Shown: positions 16,516 to 29,475, numbered from the stretch's first letter. The stretch: DNA of 64,000 nucleotides from Promethearchaeota archaeon (GCA_048940445.1 JBHLON010000003.1:77978-141977); one strand, 5' to 3'. Numbers and translations are program-made. Notes: generated by a model from the sequence alone, not told the origin.

Positions 16516-17064
16516 ATGAATAATAATCAGATAAAATTAGATAAAATTGATTTGAAGCTGATCTCAGTTTTACAAAAAGATCCCAGTTTAACTCATTACC
16601 AAATTGCCGAAATTATTAATCGGAGTCAACCGACTGTAGGAACTAGGGTAAGAAAACTTAAAGAAAAAGGAATTTTACAATTTCAAGCAGGGATAAATTT
16701 CAAAAAAATTGGAATTCAATTAGCAATTGTAAATTTAAATACAAAAAATCCAGAGGAAATAGTAGACATGGTAAATGATTGCCCTTTTATGCTAAATGCG
16801 TTTAGGCTAAGTGGAACGTTTAATATGTCTGTTTTAATCGCAAATACAAATCTAAGAAAGTTAAATAACGTGGTCGATCAACACTTTAGAAATAATTCCA
16901 ATGTTCAAAAAATTGTGATAGAATTCATAACAGATACTGTAAAAAATTTTATTCTTCCAATTGACATTGATTCTGAACTTATTTTACCAAATTTAGAAGA
17001 TGGTTGTAGCTCTAATTGCAGATATTGTGAATATAATAGAATAATGAGGTTCAAAAAATCTTAA
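16516..17064 (+). CDS. Lrp/AsnC family regulator with a Cys-rich tail
   Basis: LDKIDLKLI, HTH SQPTVGTRVRKL, RAM domain, tail CSSNCRYC. Confidence 0.9.
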   Translation: MNNNQIKLDKIDLKLISVLQKDPSLTHYQIAEIINRSQPTVGTRVRKLKEKGILQFQAGINFKKIGIQLAIVNLNTKNPEEIVDMVNDCPFMLNAFRLSGTFNMSVLIANTNLRKLNNVVDQHFRNNSNVQKIVIEFITDTVKNFILPIDIDSELILPNLEDGCSSNCRYCEYNRIMRFKKS

Positions 17065-17088: not shown

Positions 17089-18108
17089 TCATAAAATCAA
17101 AGATTTAATTTTATCGTCTTCAATTTTTTTACATGTAATTATATTATCCAATTTTTTAGAGTCAAATCCATAAATTATTGATCCACAGCTTTCTTTCAAG
17201 TCTGAATACCTAAGTGTGACTCCAGCAGCAAAATTAATCGTATCATTATCATATTTTCCTTGAATAATAGTTGTAGGTCCTGGTACTTCTTTAGCTTCCA
17301 TCATTAAATCTTTTGAATTTTTAATTTGAGTTAGCATATTATTTTCGAATTCATTCCTACCTATAATTATTTTAGAATTTTTATACCTAATATGTCTTCC
17401 GTATTTAAGAAAATTAATCTCGGGCATTGCTAAATCTTCATTAAAAGTAATATAGTCTCTCATTCTTCTAGAAAATTGTTTATCGGTTAATAAGCAACCA
17501 CCACATGCAAAATATTTATTCAGAAGGCCATATTTTCTTGCTAGTTCGAGTTGTATTTTTCTACTCCTACCCTTTATTCCCATCAATTTAGATCTATCAA
17601 TTAATCCACTTTTTTCTACATTAGTAGGTGGTAATAATAAAGCGGACAATGGTCTTAATAACTGACCTGTAAGACCAGATTCATTTTCTACTATTTTTAA
17701 AGCCTTTAAATTTTGAGATTTAGGTCTCTGATCTAAAACTTCTCCAGTAAATACAAAATCTGCTCCCAATTTTTTCATAATTTTCATTGCTTTTTTGAGG
17801 ATGTAAATCCTACAATCAATACAAGGATTTAAGTTTTTCCCGTATCCAAATTTTGGATGGCGTATGATCTCTAAATAGTCATCTCCTTTTTGAGCAAATA
17901 AAACGGAAATTCCTAACTTTTCATAATAGAGATTTAACCCACATTCTGAACTTTTTAATGCTTTATCGCAGATACAAAATGGAGATTTAAAATTAAGTCC
18001 GATAACTTCTATACGTTGTAACTTTATTAATAGCGAAGAAATTAGACTGTCCAATCCTCCTGAGACTAATCCTATTCCGACAATACTTGCATTTTTTTTA
18101 TTTTTCAC
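17089..18108 (-). CDS. PP-loop tRNA sulfurtransferase (ThiI/MnmA-like, DUF814-associated type)
   Basis: SGGLDS, NPCIDCR, TGEVLDQRPKSQ, GGCLLTD, GRH. Confidence 0.85.
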   Translation of the reverse strand: MKNKKNASIVGIGLVSGGLDSLISSLLIKLQRIEVIGLNFKSPFCICDKALKSSECGLNLYYEKLGISVLFAQKGDDYLEIIRHPKFGYGKNLNPCIDCRIYILKKAMKIMKKLGADFVFTGEVLDQRPKSQNLKALKIVENESGLTGQLLRPLSALLLPPTNVEKSGLIDRSKLMGIKGRSRKIQLELARKYGLLNKYFACGGCLLTDKQFSRRMRDYITFNEDLAMPEINFLKYGRHIRYKNSKIIIGRNEFENNMLTQIKNSKDLMMEAKEVPGPTTIIQGKYDNDTINFAAGVTLRYSDLKESCGSIIYGFDSKKLDNIITCKKIEDDKIKSLIL

Positions 18109-19211: not shown

Positions 19212-20654
19212 CTATAATTTCTTATCTTCTACTTCTATATCCATTTCTATTAACCTTTTTCTAATATAATCGCTGATGTCAAATATCTTTTTTTCTCTCA
19301 GTTTCTCTCGCGTTTTGGTCAAAATATCGATTAAATCTTTTATTTTTTTATCTTTCTCACTAAATTCTTCAATTTGAACATCACTAAGCTTTTGTTCTAT
19401 ATTCGGAAAAATACCTAAGATTTCTTCTATGAAATCAACGAATTCGAAAAACTTTTCTTTGAATTTAGTATTTATTTTTATACTTTCTTCGAATATTTTT
19501 TTATTTATTTCTCTAAATAGAGTGAATAATTCTGCTAATGCGACAGGAGTATCAAAATCATCATCCATTGCAGTGATTATTTTTTTTGATGTTTCATTTA
19601 TTTGGGTTAATAATTGTTGGATTTGTTTAGATGAGTCATCATTAATTTCAACCTGATTGATTCTTTTTATAGTATTAAATAATCTTTCATAATTTTTACT
19701 GGCTTGATTTATATTATCAAGTGAATAATTTATGGAATTTCGATAATGACTAGATACAAGAAATAAGCGAATAACCATGGGATCAAATTCTTTTAGAAGC
19801 TCTGATACCAAGAAATAATTGCCTAAACTTTTCGACATTTTTTCATCATTAATATTAACAAATCCATTATGGAGAAAATAATTGGCAAAAGGTTTTCCAG
19901 TATATGATTCAGATTGGGCAATTTCATTTCGATGATGAGGGAATTTCAAATCCTGACCTCCTCCATGTATATCAATAGTCTCACCTAAGAAATTTAGAAC
20001 CATGGCTGAGCATTCTATATGCCATCCTGGTCTTCCTTTACCCCAAGGACTTTCCCAGAAAGGTTCACCTTCCTTCATTTTTTTCCATAAAGCAAAGTCT
20101 CTAGTATCCAATTTATCTTCTCCGAAAGCTGTATCTTGATCTCCTAAATAATCTTCATTTTCTTCCTCAACATTACTTTCTTTTACATTTTGCAGGATTG
20201 TGTTATATATTGGAAATGTCTTGACTGAAAAATAAACAGATTCATTTCTTTCATAAGCATGACCTTTTTTAATTAACTCTTTAATAAATTCAATTATAAA
20301 TGGAATGACTTCAGTAGCTCGTGGATTTTTTGTTTCCTTCTTAATGTTCAGAGCTTTTGTAACATCTTGATACTCTTTAATATATTTTTTGGCTAACTCC
20401 TGAACATCAGCATTTAATTCATGGGCTCGTTTTATGATTTTGTCGTCTATATCCGTATAGTTCTTAACAATGGTCACATCATACTTTTTATATTTAAAAT
20501 ACCGATGAATTACATCAAATGCAACTGCTGATTTTGCATGACCCAGATGTGGGCTATCATATACAGTCGGTCCACATACATACATTTTAATTTTATTTGG
20601 TTCAAGAGTCTTAAATTCTTCTTTTTCAAATGTCAAACTATTGTATATTCTCAT
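19212..20654 (-). CDS. cysS: cysteine--tRNA ligase (class I)
   Basis: CGPTVY, HLGH, GRPGWHIECS, FPHH.NE, KMSKS; AGGTGA SD. Confidence 0.98.
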   Translation of the reverse strand: MRIYNSLTFEKEEFKTLEPNKIKMYVCGPTVYDSPHLGHAKSAVAFDVIHRYFKYKKYDVTIVKNYTDIDDKIIKRAHELNADVQELAKKYIKEYQDVTKALNIKKETKNPRATEVIPFIIEFIKELIKKGHAYERNESVYFSVKTFPIYNTILQNVKESNVEEENEDYLGDQDTAFGEDKLDTRDFALWKKMKEGEPFWESPWGKGRPGWHIECSAMVLNFLGETIDIHGGGQDLKFPHHRNEIAQSESYTGKPFANYFLHNGFVNINDEKMSKSLGNYFLVSELLKEFDPMVIRLFLVSSHYRNSINYSLDNINQASKNYERLFNTIKRINQVEINDDSSKQIQQLLTQINETSKKIITAMDDDFDTPVALAELFTLFREINKKIFEESIKINTKFKEKFFEFVDFIEEILGIFPNIEQKLSDVQIEEFSEKDKKIKDLIDILTKTREKLREKKIFDISDYIRKRLIEMDIEVEDKKL

Positions 20655-21007: not shown

Positions 21008-21535
21008 CTATTTTTTACAAACTTTATTCATACATGAATCACAACAGAGTCCTTCTTTGGTGATTCCACATTTACCAAAATCAAAGTCAAAATTTAATAC
21101 AAAATCCTCAACAATTTCCGTGATAACATCAATAGATACAGAGATGACATTAGGATTTTTTCTAAAATGATGATTTACAATATGATCTAGGCGTTCTAAT
21201 TTAGGACTGGCCATTAGCACACTAATATTAGAAGAACCACTTAACTTAAATGCATTTAACATATAAGGGCATTTCTTCACTAAATCAATTATTTCCGAAG
21301 TATTTAATGTTTGGATTTCAGCTCTAGCAAGAAACAAATCAGTTGTTTTAACATTAATGCCAGCTTGAAACTTTAAAATTCCATTTTCTTCTAATTTTCT
21401 GATACGCATTCCAATAGTTGGTTGAGAGCGATTAACTTTTTTAGCAATCTCGGTATGGGTAAGCGTCGGCTCTTTTTGGATTAATTGAATTATATTTCTA
21501 TCAATATCGTCAATTTCGAATAATTCAGTTGCCAT
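21008..21535 (-). CDS. Lrp/AsnC family regulator with a Cys-rich tail (paralog of 16516..17064)
   Basis: IDDIDRNII, SQPTIGMRIRKL, CPYMLNAF, tail CG...CCDSC....C. Confidence 0.9.
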   Translation of the reverse strand: MATELFEIDDIDRNIIQLIQKEPTLTHTEIAKKVNRSQPTIGMRIRKLEENGILKFQAGINVKTTDLFLARAEIQTLNTSEIIDLVKKCPYMLNAFKLSGSSNISVLMASPKLERLDHIVNHHFRKNPNVISVSIDVITEIVEDFVLNFDFDFGKCGITKEGLCCDSCMNKVCKK

Positions 21536-21712
21536 TTTTCAACACTTTTAATATTTTTATATATGTTTATCCTTATTGATATATGTTGATATGCCGATAT
21601 TTAAATATTTCGGTTGATATATATTTCCTTATCAACATAAATAAGTTATAATAAGAATAATTAAAAACGACCTTTATGAATAATTTAATTAACAGAGTTA
21701 GGAATTAATAAG

Positions 21713-22060
21713 ATGTCAGAAGCTAACACGGAACTAATTAAACTTTTAAAAATAATCAGTGATGATACTCGTTTAAATATCCTAGAACAATTAAAAGATG
21801 ACAGTAAATCCTCTAAACAATTAGAAGAAATATTAGGAAAAAAGCAATCAACGATCTCGCATCACTTAAACACTTTGATTGAGGCTAATTTAATTGAATC
21901 TCAAATTAGAGAAATTGATAAAAAGAATATTAACTTTTATAGAATAAAAAATGAAGAGATACTTAAGTTACTCTCTCAGATAAGAAATTTCGTGGAAAAT
22001 CTTAACAGTAAAGAATTTTTAGAGAGAAAAAAAAGAGGATTATATGATATACTAAGTTAG
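21713..22060 (+). CDS. ArsR/SmtB family regulator
   Basis: ISDDTRLNIL, QSTISHHLNTL, wing FYRI. Confidence 0.9.
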   Translation: MSEANTELIKLLKIISDDTRLNILEQLKDDSKSSKQLEEILGKKQSTISHHLNTLIEANLIESQIREIDKKNINFYRIKNEEILKLLSQIRNFVENLNSKEFLERKKRGLYDILS

Positions 22061-22096
22061 CTAATTTAAATTCTACTATAGTATAATGGTAATTTA

Positions 22097-22645
22097 ATGA
22101 CAAAAAAAATTGACAATTTAAATGAAAAATCTATAAAAAAGATCATTTTCATTGGTTTAGATAATGGTGGTAAAACTTCTATAATTTTGAGCTTAAAAGG
22201 AATTAATTTAATGTCATTAAACACTTCAAATCCCACAAGAGGAATTGAAACTTCAAATTTAACGTTAAGTGATGAAAGATTTAATATCTGGGATTTCGGT
22301 GGTCAAGAACAATATAGAATTAAACATTTAGAGGAATTTAGAATTAACTTCAAAGAAACTGATAAATTGATATATGTTATTGATATCCAAGACCTTGAAA
22401 GGTATGACTTGGCAATAAATTATCTAAAAAAAATTTTGAATAAAATAAATAAAGGATTTAATCAAATTAAGTTTTCTCTCTTTTTACATAAATACGATCC
22501 TAATTTAAAGGAAGTTAAACCTGAAATTACTGATGCTATAGTGGAAGATTTAATCTCAAAAATAAAAGAGCTTCTTCCTTCCAAATTTTGGGACGAAATC
22601 TATAAAACAACAATTTATACCGTTTTCGAAAGAACAAATGTTTAA
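22097..22645 (+). CDS. Asgard small GTPase (Arf/Rag-like)
   Basis: G1 GLDNGGKTS, G2 PTRG, G3 WDFGGQ, G4 HKYD, G5 TTIY. Confidence 0.93.
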   Translation: MTKKIDNLNEKSIKKIIFIGLDNGGKTSIILSLKGINLMSLNTSNPTRGIETSNLTLSDERFNIWDFGGQEQYRIKHLEEFRINFKETDKLIYVIDIQDLERYDLAINYLKKILNKINKGFNQIKFSLFLHKYDPNLKEVKPEITDAIVEDLISKIKELLPSKFWDEIYKTTIYTVFERTNV

Positions 22646-22710
22646 AAAAGTAATTAATAACATAATACTTTAATATATAATATAAATTTTCAAACTCCTT
22701 TAAAGATAAC

Positions 22711-25353
22711 ATGAACAAATTATATGAAAGAAAGAAATCTCATTTAGACTATTACATTTTCTTTTTAATCCTAATTCTTATAATCTTAACAAGTTTCTAT
22801 AGTTATTTGCTATTTCATACTCTTGCTGAATTTTTTAGTATTGTAATAAAAATTACAATATTCTCTATTTTATGGAATTCAAGAGAACATCTAGATAATT
22901 CATTCTTTTTAGTTGTGGGTTTATCTTTTATATTTATAGGATTTATAGACTTACTCCACACATTAGCCTATACTGGAATGAATATTTTCTTTGGTTATGG
23001 TACCAATCTTCCTACGCAATTATGGATAGCCGCGAGGTATTTGCAAGCAATAACATTTTTAATAGCTTCTTTAGTTTTAAGGAAAACAGTCAACGGAAAC
23101 TATTTCCTCATTGGATTCTCTCTTTACACAGGATTAATTATAACATTTATTTTTATGGGAATATTCCCAGTATGCTATATAGATCCAAATTTAGGATTAA
23201 CACCTTTTAAAATAATAAGTGAATATGTTATCGACACTATATTAATAATAACTATTTATATACTGTATAGGAAGCGTTCCACTTTTGATAAGAACATATT
23301 CTTTTTAATCATCAGCTCAATGATCATAACTATAGCTTCCGAGTTATCATTTACATTATATACTACTGCTGTTGGCATCCCCAATTTAATTGGTCATATC
23401 TTTAAAATTATGGCTTTTTTTCTATTATATAAAGCAATAATTAGTATAGGATTAAAAAATCCAATTGATCTTTTATACCGAAAATTAAAATTGAGCGAAG
23501 AGAAGTATAGACTATTTGTAGAGAGTGCCCATGAAGGCATTTGGGTAATCGATAAAAATGCTTATACTACCTATATCAATAAAAGAATAATGGAAATTCT
23601 GGGATACTCTGAACAAGAAATGATTGGAAAACATTTATTTGTTTTTATGGATAAGGAAAATATTGAAAGATCCAAGTATTATTTGAAAAGGAGACAACAA
23701 GGTATTAAAGAACAACATGATTTTGAATTTTTACATAAAAATGGTAAAAAAGTTTATACTAGATTAGAAACAGCACCCTTTCTTGATGAAAAACAAGAGT
23801 ATGATGGTGCAATTGCTTTTATATCAGATATAACAGAAAAAAAAAAAGCAGAAGAAGCACTCATCAACAGTGAAAAAAAATATCGCAATTTAGTTGAGAA
23901 TATACCCAACGTAATTTATTCAACTTTGGCAAATGAAAGAAGGACTGTAATCTTTATTTCAGATTTGTGGAAAGTATGGACGGGTATAACTCCAGAAGAA
24001 CATTATAATGATGAGAACATGTGGCTAAAAATCATTCATCCTGAGGATCGAGATAAAATAAAGAAGCAATTTCATGAAAATATTTCTTCAAAAAGAGGAT
24101 ATGATCTAGAATATCGTGCAATTCATAAGGATACAGAGGAAGTGTTTTATTTAAGAGACCAAGGAGTCCCTATTGAGGATGAAACAGGTAAAATAATTCG
24201 ATATGATGGAATTATCTCAAATATAACTTTACAAAAAAAATTTGAAAAAGCTCTAAAGAAAAGCGAAAGTGAATTGAAGGAAATTGTAAAAGAGATAACA
24301 TGCTTATATCGAATTTCAGGTTTCGCTTCTAGCTTTAACAAGGATGAATCGGATTTATTTAAAGAAATTCTTGAAATACTTCCCTCAGCGTTTCAATTTC
24401 CAGAAAGAACATACGCAAGAATCATATTTGATGGACAAGAATTTAGTTCTAAAAATTTTAAATTCTCTGATTGGAATATAAAAGCAGATATTAAAGTACA
24501 TGATAAAAAAATGGGTTTAGTTGAAATATTTCTACACAACAATATTCCTAAGTCTAATGAGAAACCTTTTTTAAAAGAAGAAGAGGATTTAAATCGTGCA
24601 ATTGCTGAAATAATCAGTAGATTTATAGAACATAAAAAAGCCGAACAAAAATTAGAGCAATTTGTATCTACTGTGTCGCATGAATTACGTAATCCTATAG
24701 CGGTTTTAATGATGTCGTTAAATTACTTAAATAAATACAAAGAAAATATTACAGATGAGCAAAAAGGTAGTTTAATGCGTGGAATCATAAGAAACGTTAA
24801 TTTACTTAATGAATTAGTTAATGATCTTCTAACATTATCAAGAATAGAAGAGAAAAAAATGGTGTTAGAATGGAAGATTTATTCACCTCCTGAGATGGTC
24901 TCTGAAGTTCTGGACTTAATGGAACCAAACTTTAGATCAAAAGATATTATAATAGAATTGGATATAAAAAAAGATCTAATGTTAATGGGAGATGTTAATA
25001 TTGTTAAACAAATTTTTAGAATCTTCATAGATAACGCTTGCAAATATTCTGAGAGGGGATCTAAAATCGTCATTAAAGCTATTGATCAATATTTTGGAAA
25101 GTTTAATCCTGAAAGAAAAGATGGAATTCTATTTCAAATTATAGATTTTGGAATAGGAATACATAAAGAGGATATTCCTTTTATTTTCGATAGATTTTAT
25201 CGAGCCAACTCGGTCAAAGATATACCCGGAACGGGACTTGGATTGACAATAGCAAAAGAGTTGATTCAGCTTCATCAAGGAAAAGTATATGTTGAAAGCG
25301 AATTTGGAAATGGAACGATTTTTTCAATTTTTTTTCCAAAGATTCAAATTTAA
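22711..25353 (+). CDS. membrane sensor histidine kinase (MASE3 - 2 PAS - GAF-like - HisKA - HATPase)
   Basis: MASE3 motifs YLLFHTLAE, DLLHTLAY, QLWIAARY, GHIFK; H-box SHELRNP (H657); DNACKYS, DFGIGI, GTGLGL. Confidence 0.93.
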   Translation: MNKLYERKKSHLDYYIFFLILILIILTSFYSYLLFHTLAEFFSIVIKITIFSILWNSREHLDNSFFLVVGLSFIFIGFIDLLHTLAYTGMNIFFGYGTNLPTQLWIAARYLQAITFLIASLVLRKTVNGNYFLIGFSLYTGLIITFIFMGIFPVCYIDPNLGLTPFKIISEYVIDTILIITIYILYRKRSTFDKNIFFLIISSMIITIASELSFTLYTTAVGIPNLIGHIFKIMAFFLLYKAIISIGLKNPIDLLYRKLKLSEEKYRLFVESAHEGIWVIDKNAYTTYINKRIMEILGYSEQEMIGKHLFVFMDKENIERSKYYLKRRQQGIKEQHDFEFLHKNGKKVYTRLETAPFLDEKQEYDGAIAFISDITEKKKAEEALINSEKKYRNLVENIPNVIYSTLANERRTVIFISDLWKVWTGITPEEHYNDENMWLKIIHPEDRDKIKKQFHENISSKRGYDLEYRAIHKDTEEVFYLRDQGVPIEDETGKIIRYDGIISNITLQKKFEKALKKSESELKEIVKEITCLYRISGFASSFNKDESDLFKEILEILPSAFQFPERTYARIIFDGQEFSSKNFKFSDWNIKADIKVHDKKMGLVEIFLHNNIPKSNEKPFLKEEEDLNRAIAEIISRFIEHKKAEQKLEQFVSTVSHELRNPIAVLMMSLNYLNKYKENITDEQKGSLMRGIIRNVNLLNELVNDLLTLSRIEEKKMVLEWKIYSPPEMVSEVLDLMEPNFRSKDIIIELDIKKDLMLMGDVNIVKQIFRIFIDNACKYSERGSKIVIKAIDQYFGKFNPERKDGILFQIIDFGIGIHKEDIPFIFDRFYRANSVKDIPGTGLGLTIAKELIQLHQGKVYVESEFGNGTIFSIFFPKIQI

Positions 25354-25426
25354 ATATTGAAAAATCTTAAATAATGATTCAATAAATATAAAAATTAAGA
25401 CATCCATTTTAATGTAGGGCTTATTA

Positions 25427-26320
25427 ATGAAACCCCTAATCATGATTGTAGAGGATAATGTGGATCTCCTTTATGCTATTAAATTGACTTTAGAAGCTAA
25501 TAAATTTCGAGTAATTTCAGCTAAAAATGGAAGGGAAGCACTCGATCTTATTTCACAATCATATAATCCTCCTGAAGTTATAATAAGTGACATTATAATG
25601 CCCGATATAGATGGATACGAATTCTTTACAGAAGTTTCAAAAAACCCGAGATTAAATCAAATTCCTTTTATCTTCCTAACAGCTAAATCGTCTCCAGAAG
25701 ATATTCGTTTCGGTAAACTATTAGGAGTAGATGACTATTTAACGAAACCCTTTAATGAAGATGATTTATTAGCTGTTATTTCCGGTAAAATAGCAAGAAA
25801 TGAGAAAAGAAAAAATATAAAAGAAAAGATGGAAGTAATCTTATCGTCTCTTGATATTGAACCTTCAATTTCAATGGATGATCAAGAAAAAATTTTTTTG
25901 CTCTTAATGTATTGGGATGATAAATATGGTCCAAAATTACAAGATCATTACCCTAAAACTAATATACTTTCTGTATCTTTTGAAGATATTGGAAATCAGC
26001 TTTTTCAGGCAACATTATTTATATATGGGCATGGAAAAATCACGAATGCCGAAGGAATTCTTTTAAATCTTGAAAACATCAAAATGTCTGGTTATGCTTA
26101 CTTCGATTCATATCCCGCAGAACATGAACGATTTGGTCAAAAGCAATATATGTTAGCTGTTATTGCACCAAATATTAGTTATTTTCATTCTTTAAAGATA
26201 AAGGCAATATTTAACCAAATTTCAAGAAGAATAAATAGTAAAATGAAAATTGATCTCAAAGCTTTATGGACAGAAATTACTACTATCCTAACTTCAAGTA
26301 TAATTCCTTTGAATCCTTGA
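25427..26320 (+). CDS. response regulator: REC fused to a longin/uDENN-like domain
   Basis: REC: VEDN, D55 in ISDIIMP, FLTA, KPF; C-terminal YWDDKYGPKL...HYP and HERFGQKQYMLAVI resemble NPRL2/FLCN/SMCR8 longin motifs (REC call firm, longin call inferred). Confidence 0.8.
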   Translation: MKPLIMIVEDNVDLLYAIKLTLEANKFRVISAKNGREALDLISQSYNPPEVIISDIIMPDIDGYEFFTEVSKNPRLNQIPFIFLTAKSSPEDIRFGKLLGVDDYLTKPFNEDDLLAVISGKIARNEKRKNIKEKMEVILSSLDIEPSISMDDQEKIFLLLMYWDDKYGPKLQDHYPKTNILSVSFEDIGNQLFQATLFIYGHGKITNAEGILLNLENIKMSGYAYFDSYPAEHERFGQKQYMLAVIAPNISYFHSLKIKAIFNQISRRINSKMKIDLKALWTEITTILTSSIIPLNP

Positions 26321-26339: not shown

Positions 26340-27278
26340 TTAATCTTCAAACAAGTCTGTTGATAAGTATCTCTCTCCGGTATCAGGTAAAATTATTACG
26401 ATATTTTCACCTTTCTTAAACTTTTTTGAAACTATATGAATACCTGCCCATGTTGCAGCCCCACTAGAGACACCTACAAAAATTCCTTCTAATTTAGCTA
26501 ATTTTCTTGAGGTTTCTACGGCATCTTCATATTCAACTTGAATTATTTCATCATAAATTTCAGTGTTTAATACATCAGGTATAAACCCTGCACCAATCCC
26601 TTGAATTTTGTGAGGGCCTGGTTCACCTCCAGATAACACAGGAGAATCTTTTGGCTCTACGGCATAAATTTTTATACTTGGCCCGATTTTCTTTTTAAGC
26701 ATTTCACCAACACCCGTAATTGTTCCTCCAGTTCCTATTCCTGCTATAAATCCATCAACTTTCCCTTCTAGATCATTGTATATTTCATTTGCAGTAGTTA
26801 TACGGTGTATTTGAGGATTAGCTTCATTTTTAAATTGTTGAGGTATGAATACTTTGTCTTTTTCTTTAGATAACTCTTCGGCCTTTTCAATAGCACCTTT
26901 CATTCCTTTAGCGGCTGGAGTCAAGACTAATTCAGCTCCATATGCTTTTAAAATCTTCCTTCTTTCAACGGACATGCTCTCAGGCATAGTAAGAATTAAT
27001 TTATAACCTTTGGCAGCGCAAACTAAAGCTAAACCAATTCCTGTGTTACCTGATGTTGGTTCAATAATTATTGTATCTCTTTTTAAAATATTAGCCTTTT
27101 CAGCCGCTTCAATCATAGCCATACAAATCCTATCCTTAACACTAGAACCAGGATTGAAAGCTTCAATTTTTACAAAAATATTTGGTTCTATTCCTTCAGT
27201 AACTTTATTAAGTTTTACTAAGGGCGTATTTCCTATTGTTTCAATTATGTTATCATATACTTTCATTATTTTAAGCAC
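26340..27278 (-). CDS. cysK: cysteine synthase A (O-acetylserine sulfhydrylase)
   Basis: IGNTPLV, SVKDR (PLP Lys), [28 protein letters not shown]; true start probably the ATG at 27266. Confidence 0.97.
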
Positions 27279-27305
27279 TCTTTTATTTTAATTTTAAAAT
27301 TCAAA

Positions 27306-28151
27306 TTAAATTCCTCCCCCATAATTTCCATAGAATATCTCTATTTCATCCTGTCGTTTGTCCGAAGATATTGAAAAAGTGGTCTCTAAATGTTTAATTC
27401 TTTTTTCTAAACTTGAGAGTGCTATTGAAATAGGATCAGGTAAATCCCCATGTCTTAAATCAATTTTCTCAATTTTCTCTCCTTTTCGGGATATAACTTT
27501 CCCAGGCACTCCAACAACTACTGAATTTGGTGGAACATCTTCAACGACCACTGAATTTGCTCCTATTCTTACATTGTCTCCTATCGTAACAGGTCCTAAT
27601 ATTTTCGCTCCAGTGCCAATCACTACATCATTACCAATAGTTGGATGACGTTTTCCCTTTTCTAGTCTAGTGCCTCCAAGTACTACTCCAGCATATATCG
27701 TAACATTATTACCAATAATGCTGGTCTCACCAATAACTACGCTTCCTCCATGATCGATGAAGAAATCACTTCCAATTTTCGCTCCTGGATGAATTTCAAT
27801 ACCGCTAAGATCTCGAGAAATCTCTGAAAGATACCTTGGTACAAAAGGCATTTTAATTTTCCAGAAAAAATGTGCTATACGATGCATCAAAATGGCCTTG
27901 ATTCCAGGATAGCTAGTTAATACTTCTATTAAGGTGTTAGCAGCAGGATCTTTATTAAAAGCAGCGTTTACATCGGAGATAAAGAAATCCAAAATTCTTT
28001 GCAGATTCTCATTGATTTCTTTGTGATTTATATCTTCTGATTTGAAATCTAATTTTAGCATACATTCTGTGCATTCACTATGAAATTTTGCGGCTTTGAC
28101 TCCTAATTTCTTACCACAATTCAAACATCTTATAAATTCTTCGGTTTTCAT
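27306..28151 (-). CDS. cysE: serine O-acetyltransferase with an N-terminal zinc-finger extension
   Basis: [29 protein letters not shown], hexapeptide repeats; extra CxxC...CxxC. Confidence 0.95.
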
Positions 28152-28293
28152 TCTGTCATATTTTAGATTATCTTAATAATGAAAATAAATTCACTACAAA
28201 CAAATAAGTTTTGTTTATAAATCATAAAAGTTTATCATCTTTTTTTTAATATGAATAATATAATAACTCAAAATGAAACTTAAATGAAAACAA

Positions 28294-29475
28294 GTGAGGA
28301 AAACTATGAGTGTAAATTGGCAAAAAATAAGAAATGAACAATTTCCATCTTTAAAAAAAATAACTTATATTATGGCAGGATCTGCATCTCCCTTAAGTAT
28401 GGAAGCATATAGGAGAGGTGTATCTTATTTTGAAGATATGTTGTATTATGGTGACATTCATTATGACGATTTTATTGAACAGGTTGAGCAAACTAGAAAA
28501 AATGTTGCTGAATATCTTAATGTTAAACCAGAAAATATAGCTTTTTTGACAAATACTTCATCAGGGATGAATATTGTTGCTAGATTTTTAGAAAATGGTG
28601 AATTTTTATATCCCTCAATCGAATTTCCTGCTTCTGTGCATATTTTTAAGCGCTTAAAGTTTCCAAGTATAAAAGTAAACGATACAAACCATCGCTATTT
28701 AATTGAAAATTTCAATCAATATATATCAGATAAGACTAAATATATCATCCATAGCCACGTCCAATCACTCACAGGATTTAGGCAAGATCTTAAAAAACTA
28801 GGTGCATTTTGCGAAGAATATCATATACTTAATATAATAAATGCAACCCAGTCATTTTGTTCTTTTAATATTGATACAAAAAATTCTAATATTGATATCC
28901 TTACTGCTAATCCATTAAAATGGGGTGCATGTGGCTATGGAGTAGGAATTCTCTATATGAATCCTACTCTTTTAAGTGAAAAAGAGATTCCATTTTCTAG
29001 TTGGTTAAGTGTTGCTGATCCTTTTTATTTAAATAATGAAAATATTAATGTAATTAACAAAGTAAAGTATATGGATGCTTTTGGAGGGTGCTCTAACATT
29101 CCAGCACTTCTATCGTTTACTGGTAGTCTAGATTTAATTAAATATCAAATAGGGAAAGGTAAGATTAAGGATGGTATTAAAAGAATCCAAGAAAGAATCA
29201 TTCATTTAACAGATATTTTCCTTGAAGAGATTAAAGCTTATAATATTAAGATAATAACACCTTTAGAAACTGAATTTAGATCAGGAATAATTACTCTCGA
29301 ACACCAAAAAGCAGAGAAAATTTATAATGACTTAGTAAAAAATCAGATTTATATTACCTTGAAACGTTATCCAAATGTTCCCGAACAAACATTACTTCGA
29401 TTTGCTTTTCATTACTATAATAACGAAAACGATATTAAGAGAGTAATGAAAGTTTTTAGAATCCTAAATATATAA
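28294..29475 (+). CDS. class V PLP-dependent enzyme (C-S lyase/cysteine desulfurase-like)
   Basis: NTSSGMN, EFPAS, INATQS, ANPLKW (PLP Lys), SGII, LRFAFHYYN. Confidence 0.85.
   Translation: MRKTMSVNWQKIRNEQFPSLKKITYIMAGSASPLSMEAYRRGVSYFEDMLYYGDIHYDDFIEQVEQTRKNVAEYLNVKPENIAFLTNTSSGMNIVARFLENGEFLYPSIEFPASVHIFKRLKFPSIKVNDTNHRYLIENFNQYISDKTKYIIHSHVQSLTGFRQDLKKLGAFCEEYHILNIINATQSFCSFNIDTKNSNIDILTANPLKWGACGYGVGILYMNPTLLSEKEIPFSSWLSVADPFYLNNENINVINKVKYMDAFGGCSNIPALLSFTGSLDLIKYQIGKGKIKDGIKRIQERIIHLTDIFLEEIKAYNIKIITPLETEFRSGIITLEHQKAEKIYNDLVKNQIYITLKRYPNVPEQTLLRFAFHYYNNENDIKRVMKVFRILNI

Follow-up and report, generated by a model that had tools for sequence, protein, structure and literature searches.

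Four genes of a Promethearchaeota archaeon, lying at 21713-26320 of a stretch of 64,000 nucleotides (GCA_048940445.1 JBHLON010000003.1:77978-141977; hereafter the window), appear to connect a two-component system with a eukaryote-like small GTPase: to judge from the sequences, the longin domain that ends their response regulator probably regulates the GTPase encoded beside it, and its modelled fold, its motifs, their conservation and the gene linkage tip the balance towards its doing so by GAP (GTPase-activating protein) action. The four open reading frames are all on the + strand, separated by 36, 65 and 73 bp. They encode, in order, an ArsR-family winged-helix protein of 115 amino acids (21713-22060; Pfam HTH_5, 2e-14), which is a candidate GTPase effector with a weak complex prediction; a short Rag-like small GTPase of 182 amino acids (22097-22645; Pfam Arf 4e-21, Gtr1_RagA 9e-19); a membrane sensor histidine kinase of 880 amino acids (22711-25353; assigned by Pfam, motifs and hydropathy); and a response regulator of 297 amino acids (25427-26320; Pfam Response_reg 1e-23, AlphaFold2 and fold searches), made of a receiver (REC) and a longin of the FLCN/SMCR8/NPRL2 type. 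A first-pass annotation of the same DNA had reported these genes and gaps, together with the GTPase motifs, the kinase histidine H657, the receiver aspartate D55 and the codon of the longin arginine R235, all of which proved correct on recheck. The arrangement is not due to chance, since relatives show the same order and this genome contains it a second time; the close relatives carry the label Promethearchaeota, that is, Loki-type Asgard archaea.

The regulator had been described as lacking a DNA-binding output, and indeed its receiver is followed by a longin domain and by no output family known to Pfam, which has no match on the C-terminal half. We modelled this half with AlphaFold2 from 102 homologs (pLDDT 92.8) and obtained the longin order β-β-α-β-β-β-α-α; the first longin strand begins at regulator residue 156, and the protein ends after the longin. 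The closest structural matches are FLCN (6nzd_H; Z 12.7, rmsd 2.3, 130 aligned residues), Lst4 (Z 12.2), the Loki roadblock-longin 8yqg (11.8) and C9orf72-SMCR8 (11.4), followed at lower scores by DENND1A (9.3), TRAPP (9.0) and the longins of SNAREs and adaptors; the longins of guanine nucleotide exchange factor (GEF) type, including Mon1-Ccz1, span 9.3-8.4. Foldseek gave the FLCN-FNIP2, GATOR1 and SEA complexes as best matches, and comparison with the Atlas gave a Heimdall folliculin-like cluster (TM 0.75), SMCR8 (0.72) and C9orf72 (0.71). The longin fold on which the first-pass annotation had staked its reading is thus borne out by the model topology, the match to FLCN and Foldseek; the kinship with FLCN, SMCR8 and NPRL2 that it proposed is also reflected in the fold, FLCN and C9orf72-SMCR8 being top matches and GATOR1 among the best of Foldseek.

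In an alignment of 150 homologs, the WD and GP motifs of the β1-β2 hairpin (25913-25933, + strand) are strongly conserved (W163 94%, D164 79%, G168 95%, P169 94%), and R235, the candidate arginine finger (codon CGA, 26129-26131, + strand), is Arg in 80% of the sequences, within a loop whose neighbouring residues vary. The GAP activity of C9orf72 depends on W33-D34, the arginine finger being R147 of SMCR8 (PMC8213707); in PMC12290439, the GP motif is described as confined to GAP longins and missing from those of DENND, TRAPP and adaptin proteins. R235 sits between model strands 79-89 and 97-106 (regulator residues 220-230 and 238-247), and SMCR8 R147 and FLCN R164 are located in the βL4-βL5 loop (bioRxiv 10.1101/2020.04.16.045708); the conserved arginine predicted beforehand therefore holds, in a β4-β5 loop as in SMCR8 and FLCN. 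In the model, R235 would match FLCN R164 and SMCR8 R147 by topology, the fold tools having given ranges and no residue pairs. A search of 1.84 billion representatives with the output domain returned 155 clusters. A receiver is also present in 108 of the 171 proteins bearing this longin, which is elsewhere fused to hybrid kinases, PAS, GAF, RsbRD_N and DUF1638, and naturally to Arf-like and Rab-like GTPases (P0049, P0066). We also observed a distant copy of it in proteins of ~640-690 amino acids (L058, L059, P0172), the last of which has an N-terminal longin and then TPR repeats.

The GTPase has intact G1-G5 boxes, with GLDNGGKT at residue 20, PTRG at 46, WDFGGQ at 65 (Q70), HKYD at 131 and TTIY at 171. 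Its closest PDB entry, both by sequence (E 1e-20) and by fold (Z 23.2), is LokiRagO (8yl2), after which come Gtr1 (Z 21.8), RagA (21.1), Arf/Arl proteins (at most 18.9) and GerdArfR1 (18.5) in fold. The stop codon lies 8 residues past G5, leaving neither a roadblock domain nor a full α5 helix; the AlphaFold2 model stops at the position equivalent to RagA 175 or Arf1 169, with an unstructured N-terminus and a C-terminal tail that forms a short strand at the α5 place. Since nearly all homologs share this early stop (110 of 116 end 8-9 residues after G5), it is a conserved family trait and not a broken gene. The G4 box is HKxD, not NKxD, in 118 of 120 homologs; residue 2 is Thr, and Gly2, the myristoylation site, is found in only 3 of the 120. 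On these features the GTPase is neither a true Rag nor a true Arf: what the first-pass annotation had called an Arf-like and Rag-like protein has a G domain of Rag type, in which the HKxD and T[ST]I[WY] boxes are present, and belongs to neither family, having no roadblock domain and no full α5. Q70 is invariant in 32 aligned homologs, which fits the requirement of an arginine-finger mechanism. A third short GTPase of the same family (L002:332-856; G000 contig C133) adjoins neither ArsR nor longin. Where a short GTPase has no ArsR, the gene after it is often one of 130-147 amino acids with weak longin/roadblock Pfam matches (L060:8566-9003, L063:1377-1814, L105:4570-5013, L108:4618-6220, L118, L138, L139), a second partner type for the family.

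The phosphorelay side of the system appears complete. Pfam resolves the kinase into MASE3-PAS-PAS-HisKA-HATPase_c, and motif search and hydropathy place the phospho-acceptor H657 (codon 24679-24681), the N, G1, F and G2 boxes at 774, 812, 826 and 840, and ~7 hydrophobic segments. The receiver occupies residues 5-118 of the regulator and has D10, D55 (codon 25589-25591), T85 and K107; among REC-longin homologs, D55 and T/S85 are kept in 90 of 90 and K107 in 89 of 90. Kinase and receiver qualify as a class I two-component pair (HisKA phospho-histidine, HATPase_c boxes, acidic pocket, Asp, Thr/Ser and Lys), and their intact motifs and fixed adjacency make cognate phosphotransfer from H657 to D55 very probable.

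The order of a divergent Lrp gene, ArsR, GTPase, MASE3 kinase and REC-longin repeats across several genera of the window's family. To avoid bias, we began the linkage count from the GTPase, taking its 50 best matches in 301 Asgard genomes: a REC-longin lies within 5 kb in 44 of them, and in the remaining 6 the MASE3 kinase is followed by the contig end. The chance expectation is ~0.006 per gene, for loci that are kin and not independent. The first-pass annotation had let its reading depend on such linkage in relatives, and the 44 cases bear it out. Linkage is kept in convergent (L112, L155, L163) and divergent (L060, L063) arrangements, and in other loci the gene directly downstream of the REC-longin is a GTPase of another subfamily (L080, L081, L083, L085) or, in a distant family, a longin-type GTPase fusion of 456-462 amino acids (L040, L041, L050). 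The genome of the window holds only one other close REC-longin copy, and it holds a second cassette (L001:6813-9611; G000 contig C3, 56812-59610) with Lrp, ArsR, short GTPase and a REC-longin that has the Arg, and no kinase; no significant kinase remnant was found in the gap. Two close relatives of this C3 cassette (L134 and L135, 74-77% DNA identity) retain a MASE3 kinase at that place. The assembly yielded no MASE3 kinase other than that of the window, which the C3 paralog may use. Two further observations concern this gene family: an ArsR-GTPase pair is followed at L113:3094-3807 by a receiver-less protein that starts like a GP-motif longin, and three loci titled Odinarchaeota, Hermodarchaeota and Hodarchaeota (L005, L006, L007) share this gene order, with 70-80% identity, and fall among Promethearchaeota copies in the tree; their taxon labels may be wrong.

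The pairing of the GTPase with ArsR is more frequent still. We collected 92 distinct short GTPases; ArsR is directly upstream of 72 of the 88 that could be assessed, and a REC-longin is near 43 of the same set, with 11 more cut off behind the kinase. Because ArsR linkage is the commoner, ArsR and the GTPase seem to be the core module, to which the two-component pair is often added as an input. The GTPase also adjoins ArsR in 15 of 19 assessable loci from genomes outside profile construction. The ArsR of the window has no Cys, like 57 of 67 GTPase-linked homologs, and the conserved Cys ligand sites of metal- and persulfide-sensing ArsR/SmtB proteins are absent, the His/Asp/Glu α5 sites lying outside the formal test. 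Its C-terminal helix extension is conserved (L114 invariant, D112 nearly so, in 29 homologs). A predicted complex of an ArsR dimer with the GTPase, GTP and Mg scored 0.49 against 0.00 for the best control (partner pLDDT at least 83, contact agreement between runs at least 91%) and is rated weak, with no interface given; 58 of the 80 solved pairs reached the mark for this score, as did 2 of the 110 mismatched ones, and at 0.60 or below it was reached by 7 of the 80 solved pairs and both mismatches. We tentatively regard ArsR as an effector of the GTPase, with a transcriptional output, and its tail possibly takes the place of the missing GTPase helix. The tail was rejected as a marker of GTPase-linked copies only, since unlinked proteins bear it too (below) and its pattern had been built on these very sequences. 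Fusion of ArsR to the GTPase, or read-through between them, was likewise discarded: the two share a frame here (36-nt gap, three stops), but the gaps of relatives range from about -10 to 180 nt.

In the mechanism that we propose, the MASE3/PAS kinase would autophosphorylate on H657 and hand the phosphate to D55, and the state of the receiver would, if it behaves as receivers usually do, control the pairing or exposure of the longin, which may turn the activity either on or off. In eukaryotic longin GAPs the work is divided, one subunit holding the GTPase with its WD motif and the other giving the arginine; because WD and Arg are here on one chain, a homodimer is probable. Such a homodimer would hold the GTPase via the WD motif and supply the arginine, R235 being inserted beside Q70 of the neighbouring GTPase, whose nucleotide state would most likely be read by the ArsR encoded just upstream and turned into a transcriptional output. 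We consider it rather unlikely that the whole chain, from the kinase through D55, the longin GAP and the GTPase to ArsR, operates in every link. No greater probability attaches to its detailed form, a four-step circuit in one operon in which the phospho-receiver would assemble a homodimeric longin GAP acting on a Rag-like GTPase without its final helix, with the conserved C-terminal helix of ArsR docked on that GTPase.

Several observations weigh against this proposal. We found no sequence bridge from the regulator longin to FLCN, NPRL2 or SMCR8: a profile of the domain had no match among PDB sequences, Pfam gave scattered weak matches over all 102 family members, and a bridge by way of P0157, whose N-terminus is NPRL2-like, fell short of significance (probability 0.5%, E 0.11), with the GP and Arg positions nonetheless aligned. 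The Atlas feature search gave leads only, all under 0.9. The cassette contains no DENN domain and no second longin subunit. By every available sequence and structure test the output would behave as a longin GAP, and yet it stands outside the heterodimeric longin-DENN complexes. Among 90 distinct REC-longins, 51 of the 53 copies linked to a GTPase retain the Arg, against 7 of the 15 that are unlinked, a contrast that is suggestive only and no independent statistic because the losses fall in about two clades of a tree that comes from a quick IQ-TREE run and has many open forks. Of the 35 short GTPases that are more distant, only 2 lie near a REC-longin, so the GTPase can function without one, and three ArsR homologs bear the tail with no adjoining GTPase (L172, L177, L181). 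Moreover, since the genome holds ~39 small GTPases, another of them could be the substrate; and many longin dimers are GEFs or scaffolds.

The last point has a counterpart in a different reading of the regulator, in which phosphorylation would still control the binding of the longin to the neighbouring GTPase, but the longin would be a GEF, scaffold or effector and R235 a binding residue rather than a catalytic finger. Dimers of longin and roadblock domains are mainly GEFs and only occasionally GAPs (PMC10933270), the GEF longins DENND1A, TRAPP and Mon1-Ccz1 also match the model, and the non-catalytic subunits FNIP2 and Lst4 are among its top fold matches. We nevertheless hold this reading to be unlikely, given that the GP motif is reported in GAP longins and missing from the DENND, TRAPP and adaptin ones, that the Arg is kept within a loop of variable neighbours, and that the GTPase retains its catalytic Gln. 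Quite unlikely, in our estimate, is that ArsR and GTPase form a self-contained module, the kinase and REC-longin being carried along by co-transcription and the longin having some other GTPase as its target. Pairs of ArsR and GTPase with neither kinase nor REC-longin are frequent (18 cases with enough context to judge), there are 7 REC-longins with an intact Arg and no GTPase within 4.5 kb, the longin is fused to GTPases of other families, and the genome has ~39 GTPases. Linkage, however, outlasts inversion and divergent arrangement and so cannot be explained by co-transcription, and the C3 copy has held ArsR, GTPase and REC-longin together after the loss of the kinase.

We regard as very improbable that the longin is a mere dimerisation or small-ligand module of the two-component system, with no GTPase client and a structural Arg. 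Its fusion to PAS, GAF, RsbRD_N, DUF1638 and hybrid kinases would suit such a role, as would the Arg-less clade that thrives in another neighbourhood; the repeated linkage and fusion to GTPases, and the presence of all three GAP-associated motifs together, speak against it. That Arg-less REC-longin clade (L086-L093) has a conserved neighbourhood of its own, of unannotated genes of 466, 487, 434 and 524 amino acids, away from GTPases.

The known eukaryotic comparators are the longin GAPs FLCN-FNIP2 (for RagC/D), GATOR1 NPRL2-NPRL3 (for RagA/B) and C9orf72-SMCR8 (for Arf1) (PMC8213707, PMC9473554). The cassette regulator has in common with them the longin fold, the GP motif, a C9orf72-like WD, the β4-β5 Arg and a Rag/Arf-like candidate client with a catalytic Gln. 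As known from sequence and model, it differs from them in having no DENN and no second longin subunit, in carrying WD and Arg on one chain and in its N-terminal phospho-receiver. Many fusions of NPRL2-like longins to two-component domains in Asgard archaea have been reported, and a link to two-component growth regulation proposed (Liu et al., bioRxiv 10.1101/2020.10.19.343400, Fig. 5c); the REC-longin described here, with its receiver and longin, is the same kind of fusion in the same organism group, but in the accessible portion of that account no GTPase partner, arginine finger, ArsR or conserved cassette is named. Asgard longins of FLCN/SMCR8 type with a GP motif and an arginine finger were reported with possible GAP activity, and the question whether ArfR or Rag proteins are their partners was raised (PMC12290439); they share the motifs of the present longin, and in the part of that article available to us Heimdallarchaeia are highlighted and no receiver fusion or client is named, whereas the cassette gives a candidate client.

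The GTPase resembles LokiRagO (8yl2), LokiRagM (8zla/9m28) and the eukaryotic Rag/Gtr proteins in its G domain and its HKxD and T[ST]IY boxes, and it departs from Rag/Gtr in having no roadblock, in ending where α5 should start and in being paired with ArsR rather than with a second Rag. The Frz - RomR/RomX - MglA/MglB module of Myxococcus xanthus is also a prokaryotic phosphorelay in which a receiver protein interfaces with a small GTPase and its GAP (for example PMC3441718). In that module MglB is a separate roadblock GAP and the output is motility, whereas in the cassette one chain holds both the receiver and the candidate GAP, and transcription is the likely output. MglA supplies its own arginine. 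In the literature searched, outside which most subscription journals lay, we found no description of the cassette or of ArsR paired with an Arf-like GTPase. The first-pass annotation knew of no description of the complete circuit, which agrees with our search for the cassette; its parts are less new, the domain fusion and the Asgard GP/Arg longins being already known from publications, and what is added here is the ArsR pairing of the short GTPase.

The neighbourhood of the cassette offers a further clue to its signal. A divergent Lrp/AsnC-type regulator (21008-21535, - strand; Pfam HTH_24, AsnC_trans_reg) precedes ArsR, and in 35 of 40 full cassettes an Lrp gene is no more than 1.5 kb away from the GTPase. 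Upstream of the cassette is cysS, and cysK/cysE converge from its downstream side, an arrangement in which the earlier reading saw an echo of amino-acid sensing. This argument is weak: among the 40 full cassettes, cysK/cysE are near 15, cysS is near 15 and neither is near 23, in examined flanks of ~4-8 kb that may make the counts low. Cysteine sensing as a general feature was therefore set aside, the cysteine genes being linked in only part of the clade, and the Lrp neighbour is a better place to look for any connection with amino acids or sulfur. Between Lrp and ArsR, at 21579-21610 (+ strand), GATAT repeats with an 8-bp period lead into a TATA-like TTTAAATA; the pattern in related loci and a genome scan suggest a probable promoter or operator of the Lrp-ArsR pair. 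A strict pattern places this element upstream of the ArsR gene at 25 of 79 related loci, and the genome scan with it scores 34.9 at the cassette. A regulon search with the same element gave no excess of genome sites above 15 bits (10, against 11 expected from shuffles), and a scan for sigma-70 promoters and terminators, a method not suited to archaea, stayed at chance level.

Among other features of the window, the Lrp/AsnC-type regulators at 21008-21535 and 16516-17064 have Cys-rich C-terminal tails, a possible metal or redox site, and at least 2 Cys are present in the last 35 residues in 77 of 80 homologs. Sulfur-related genes surround the cassette (17089-18108, 19212-20654 and 26340-29475): a ThiI-like gene that includes an NFACT RNA-binding domain, a gene for a class V aminotransferase, and cysS, cysK and cysE, the last three identified by their sequence motifs. 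Downstream, at 31692-34514, there is another histidine kinase, rich in PAS domains, which several close relatives have at the same place.

In strain MK-D1, GTPase genes are generally not in operons with longins and are hard to match with GAPs or GEFs (PMC10933270). In the cassette three small soluble proteins, of 297, 182 and 115 amino acids, form a matched set for which point mutants suggest themselves (D55N, R235A, W163/D164, Q70L), and its value lies in making a published open question on Asgard longins directly testable. If the longin is a GAP, the arginine-finger chemistry of FLCN, GATOR1 and C9orf72-SMCR8 would predate eukaryotes, in a homodimeric form under phosphorelay control, and this homodimer would be a single-chain forerunner of FLCN-FNIP, NPRL2-NPRL3 and SMCR8-C9orf72. 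If ArsR is the output, an Asgard small GTPase would have a transcriptional effector instead of a role in membrane traffic; and if the four-step circuit holds, a eukaryote-type GAP/GTPase switch would stand between a bacterial-type phosphorelay and a prokaryotic repressor.

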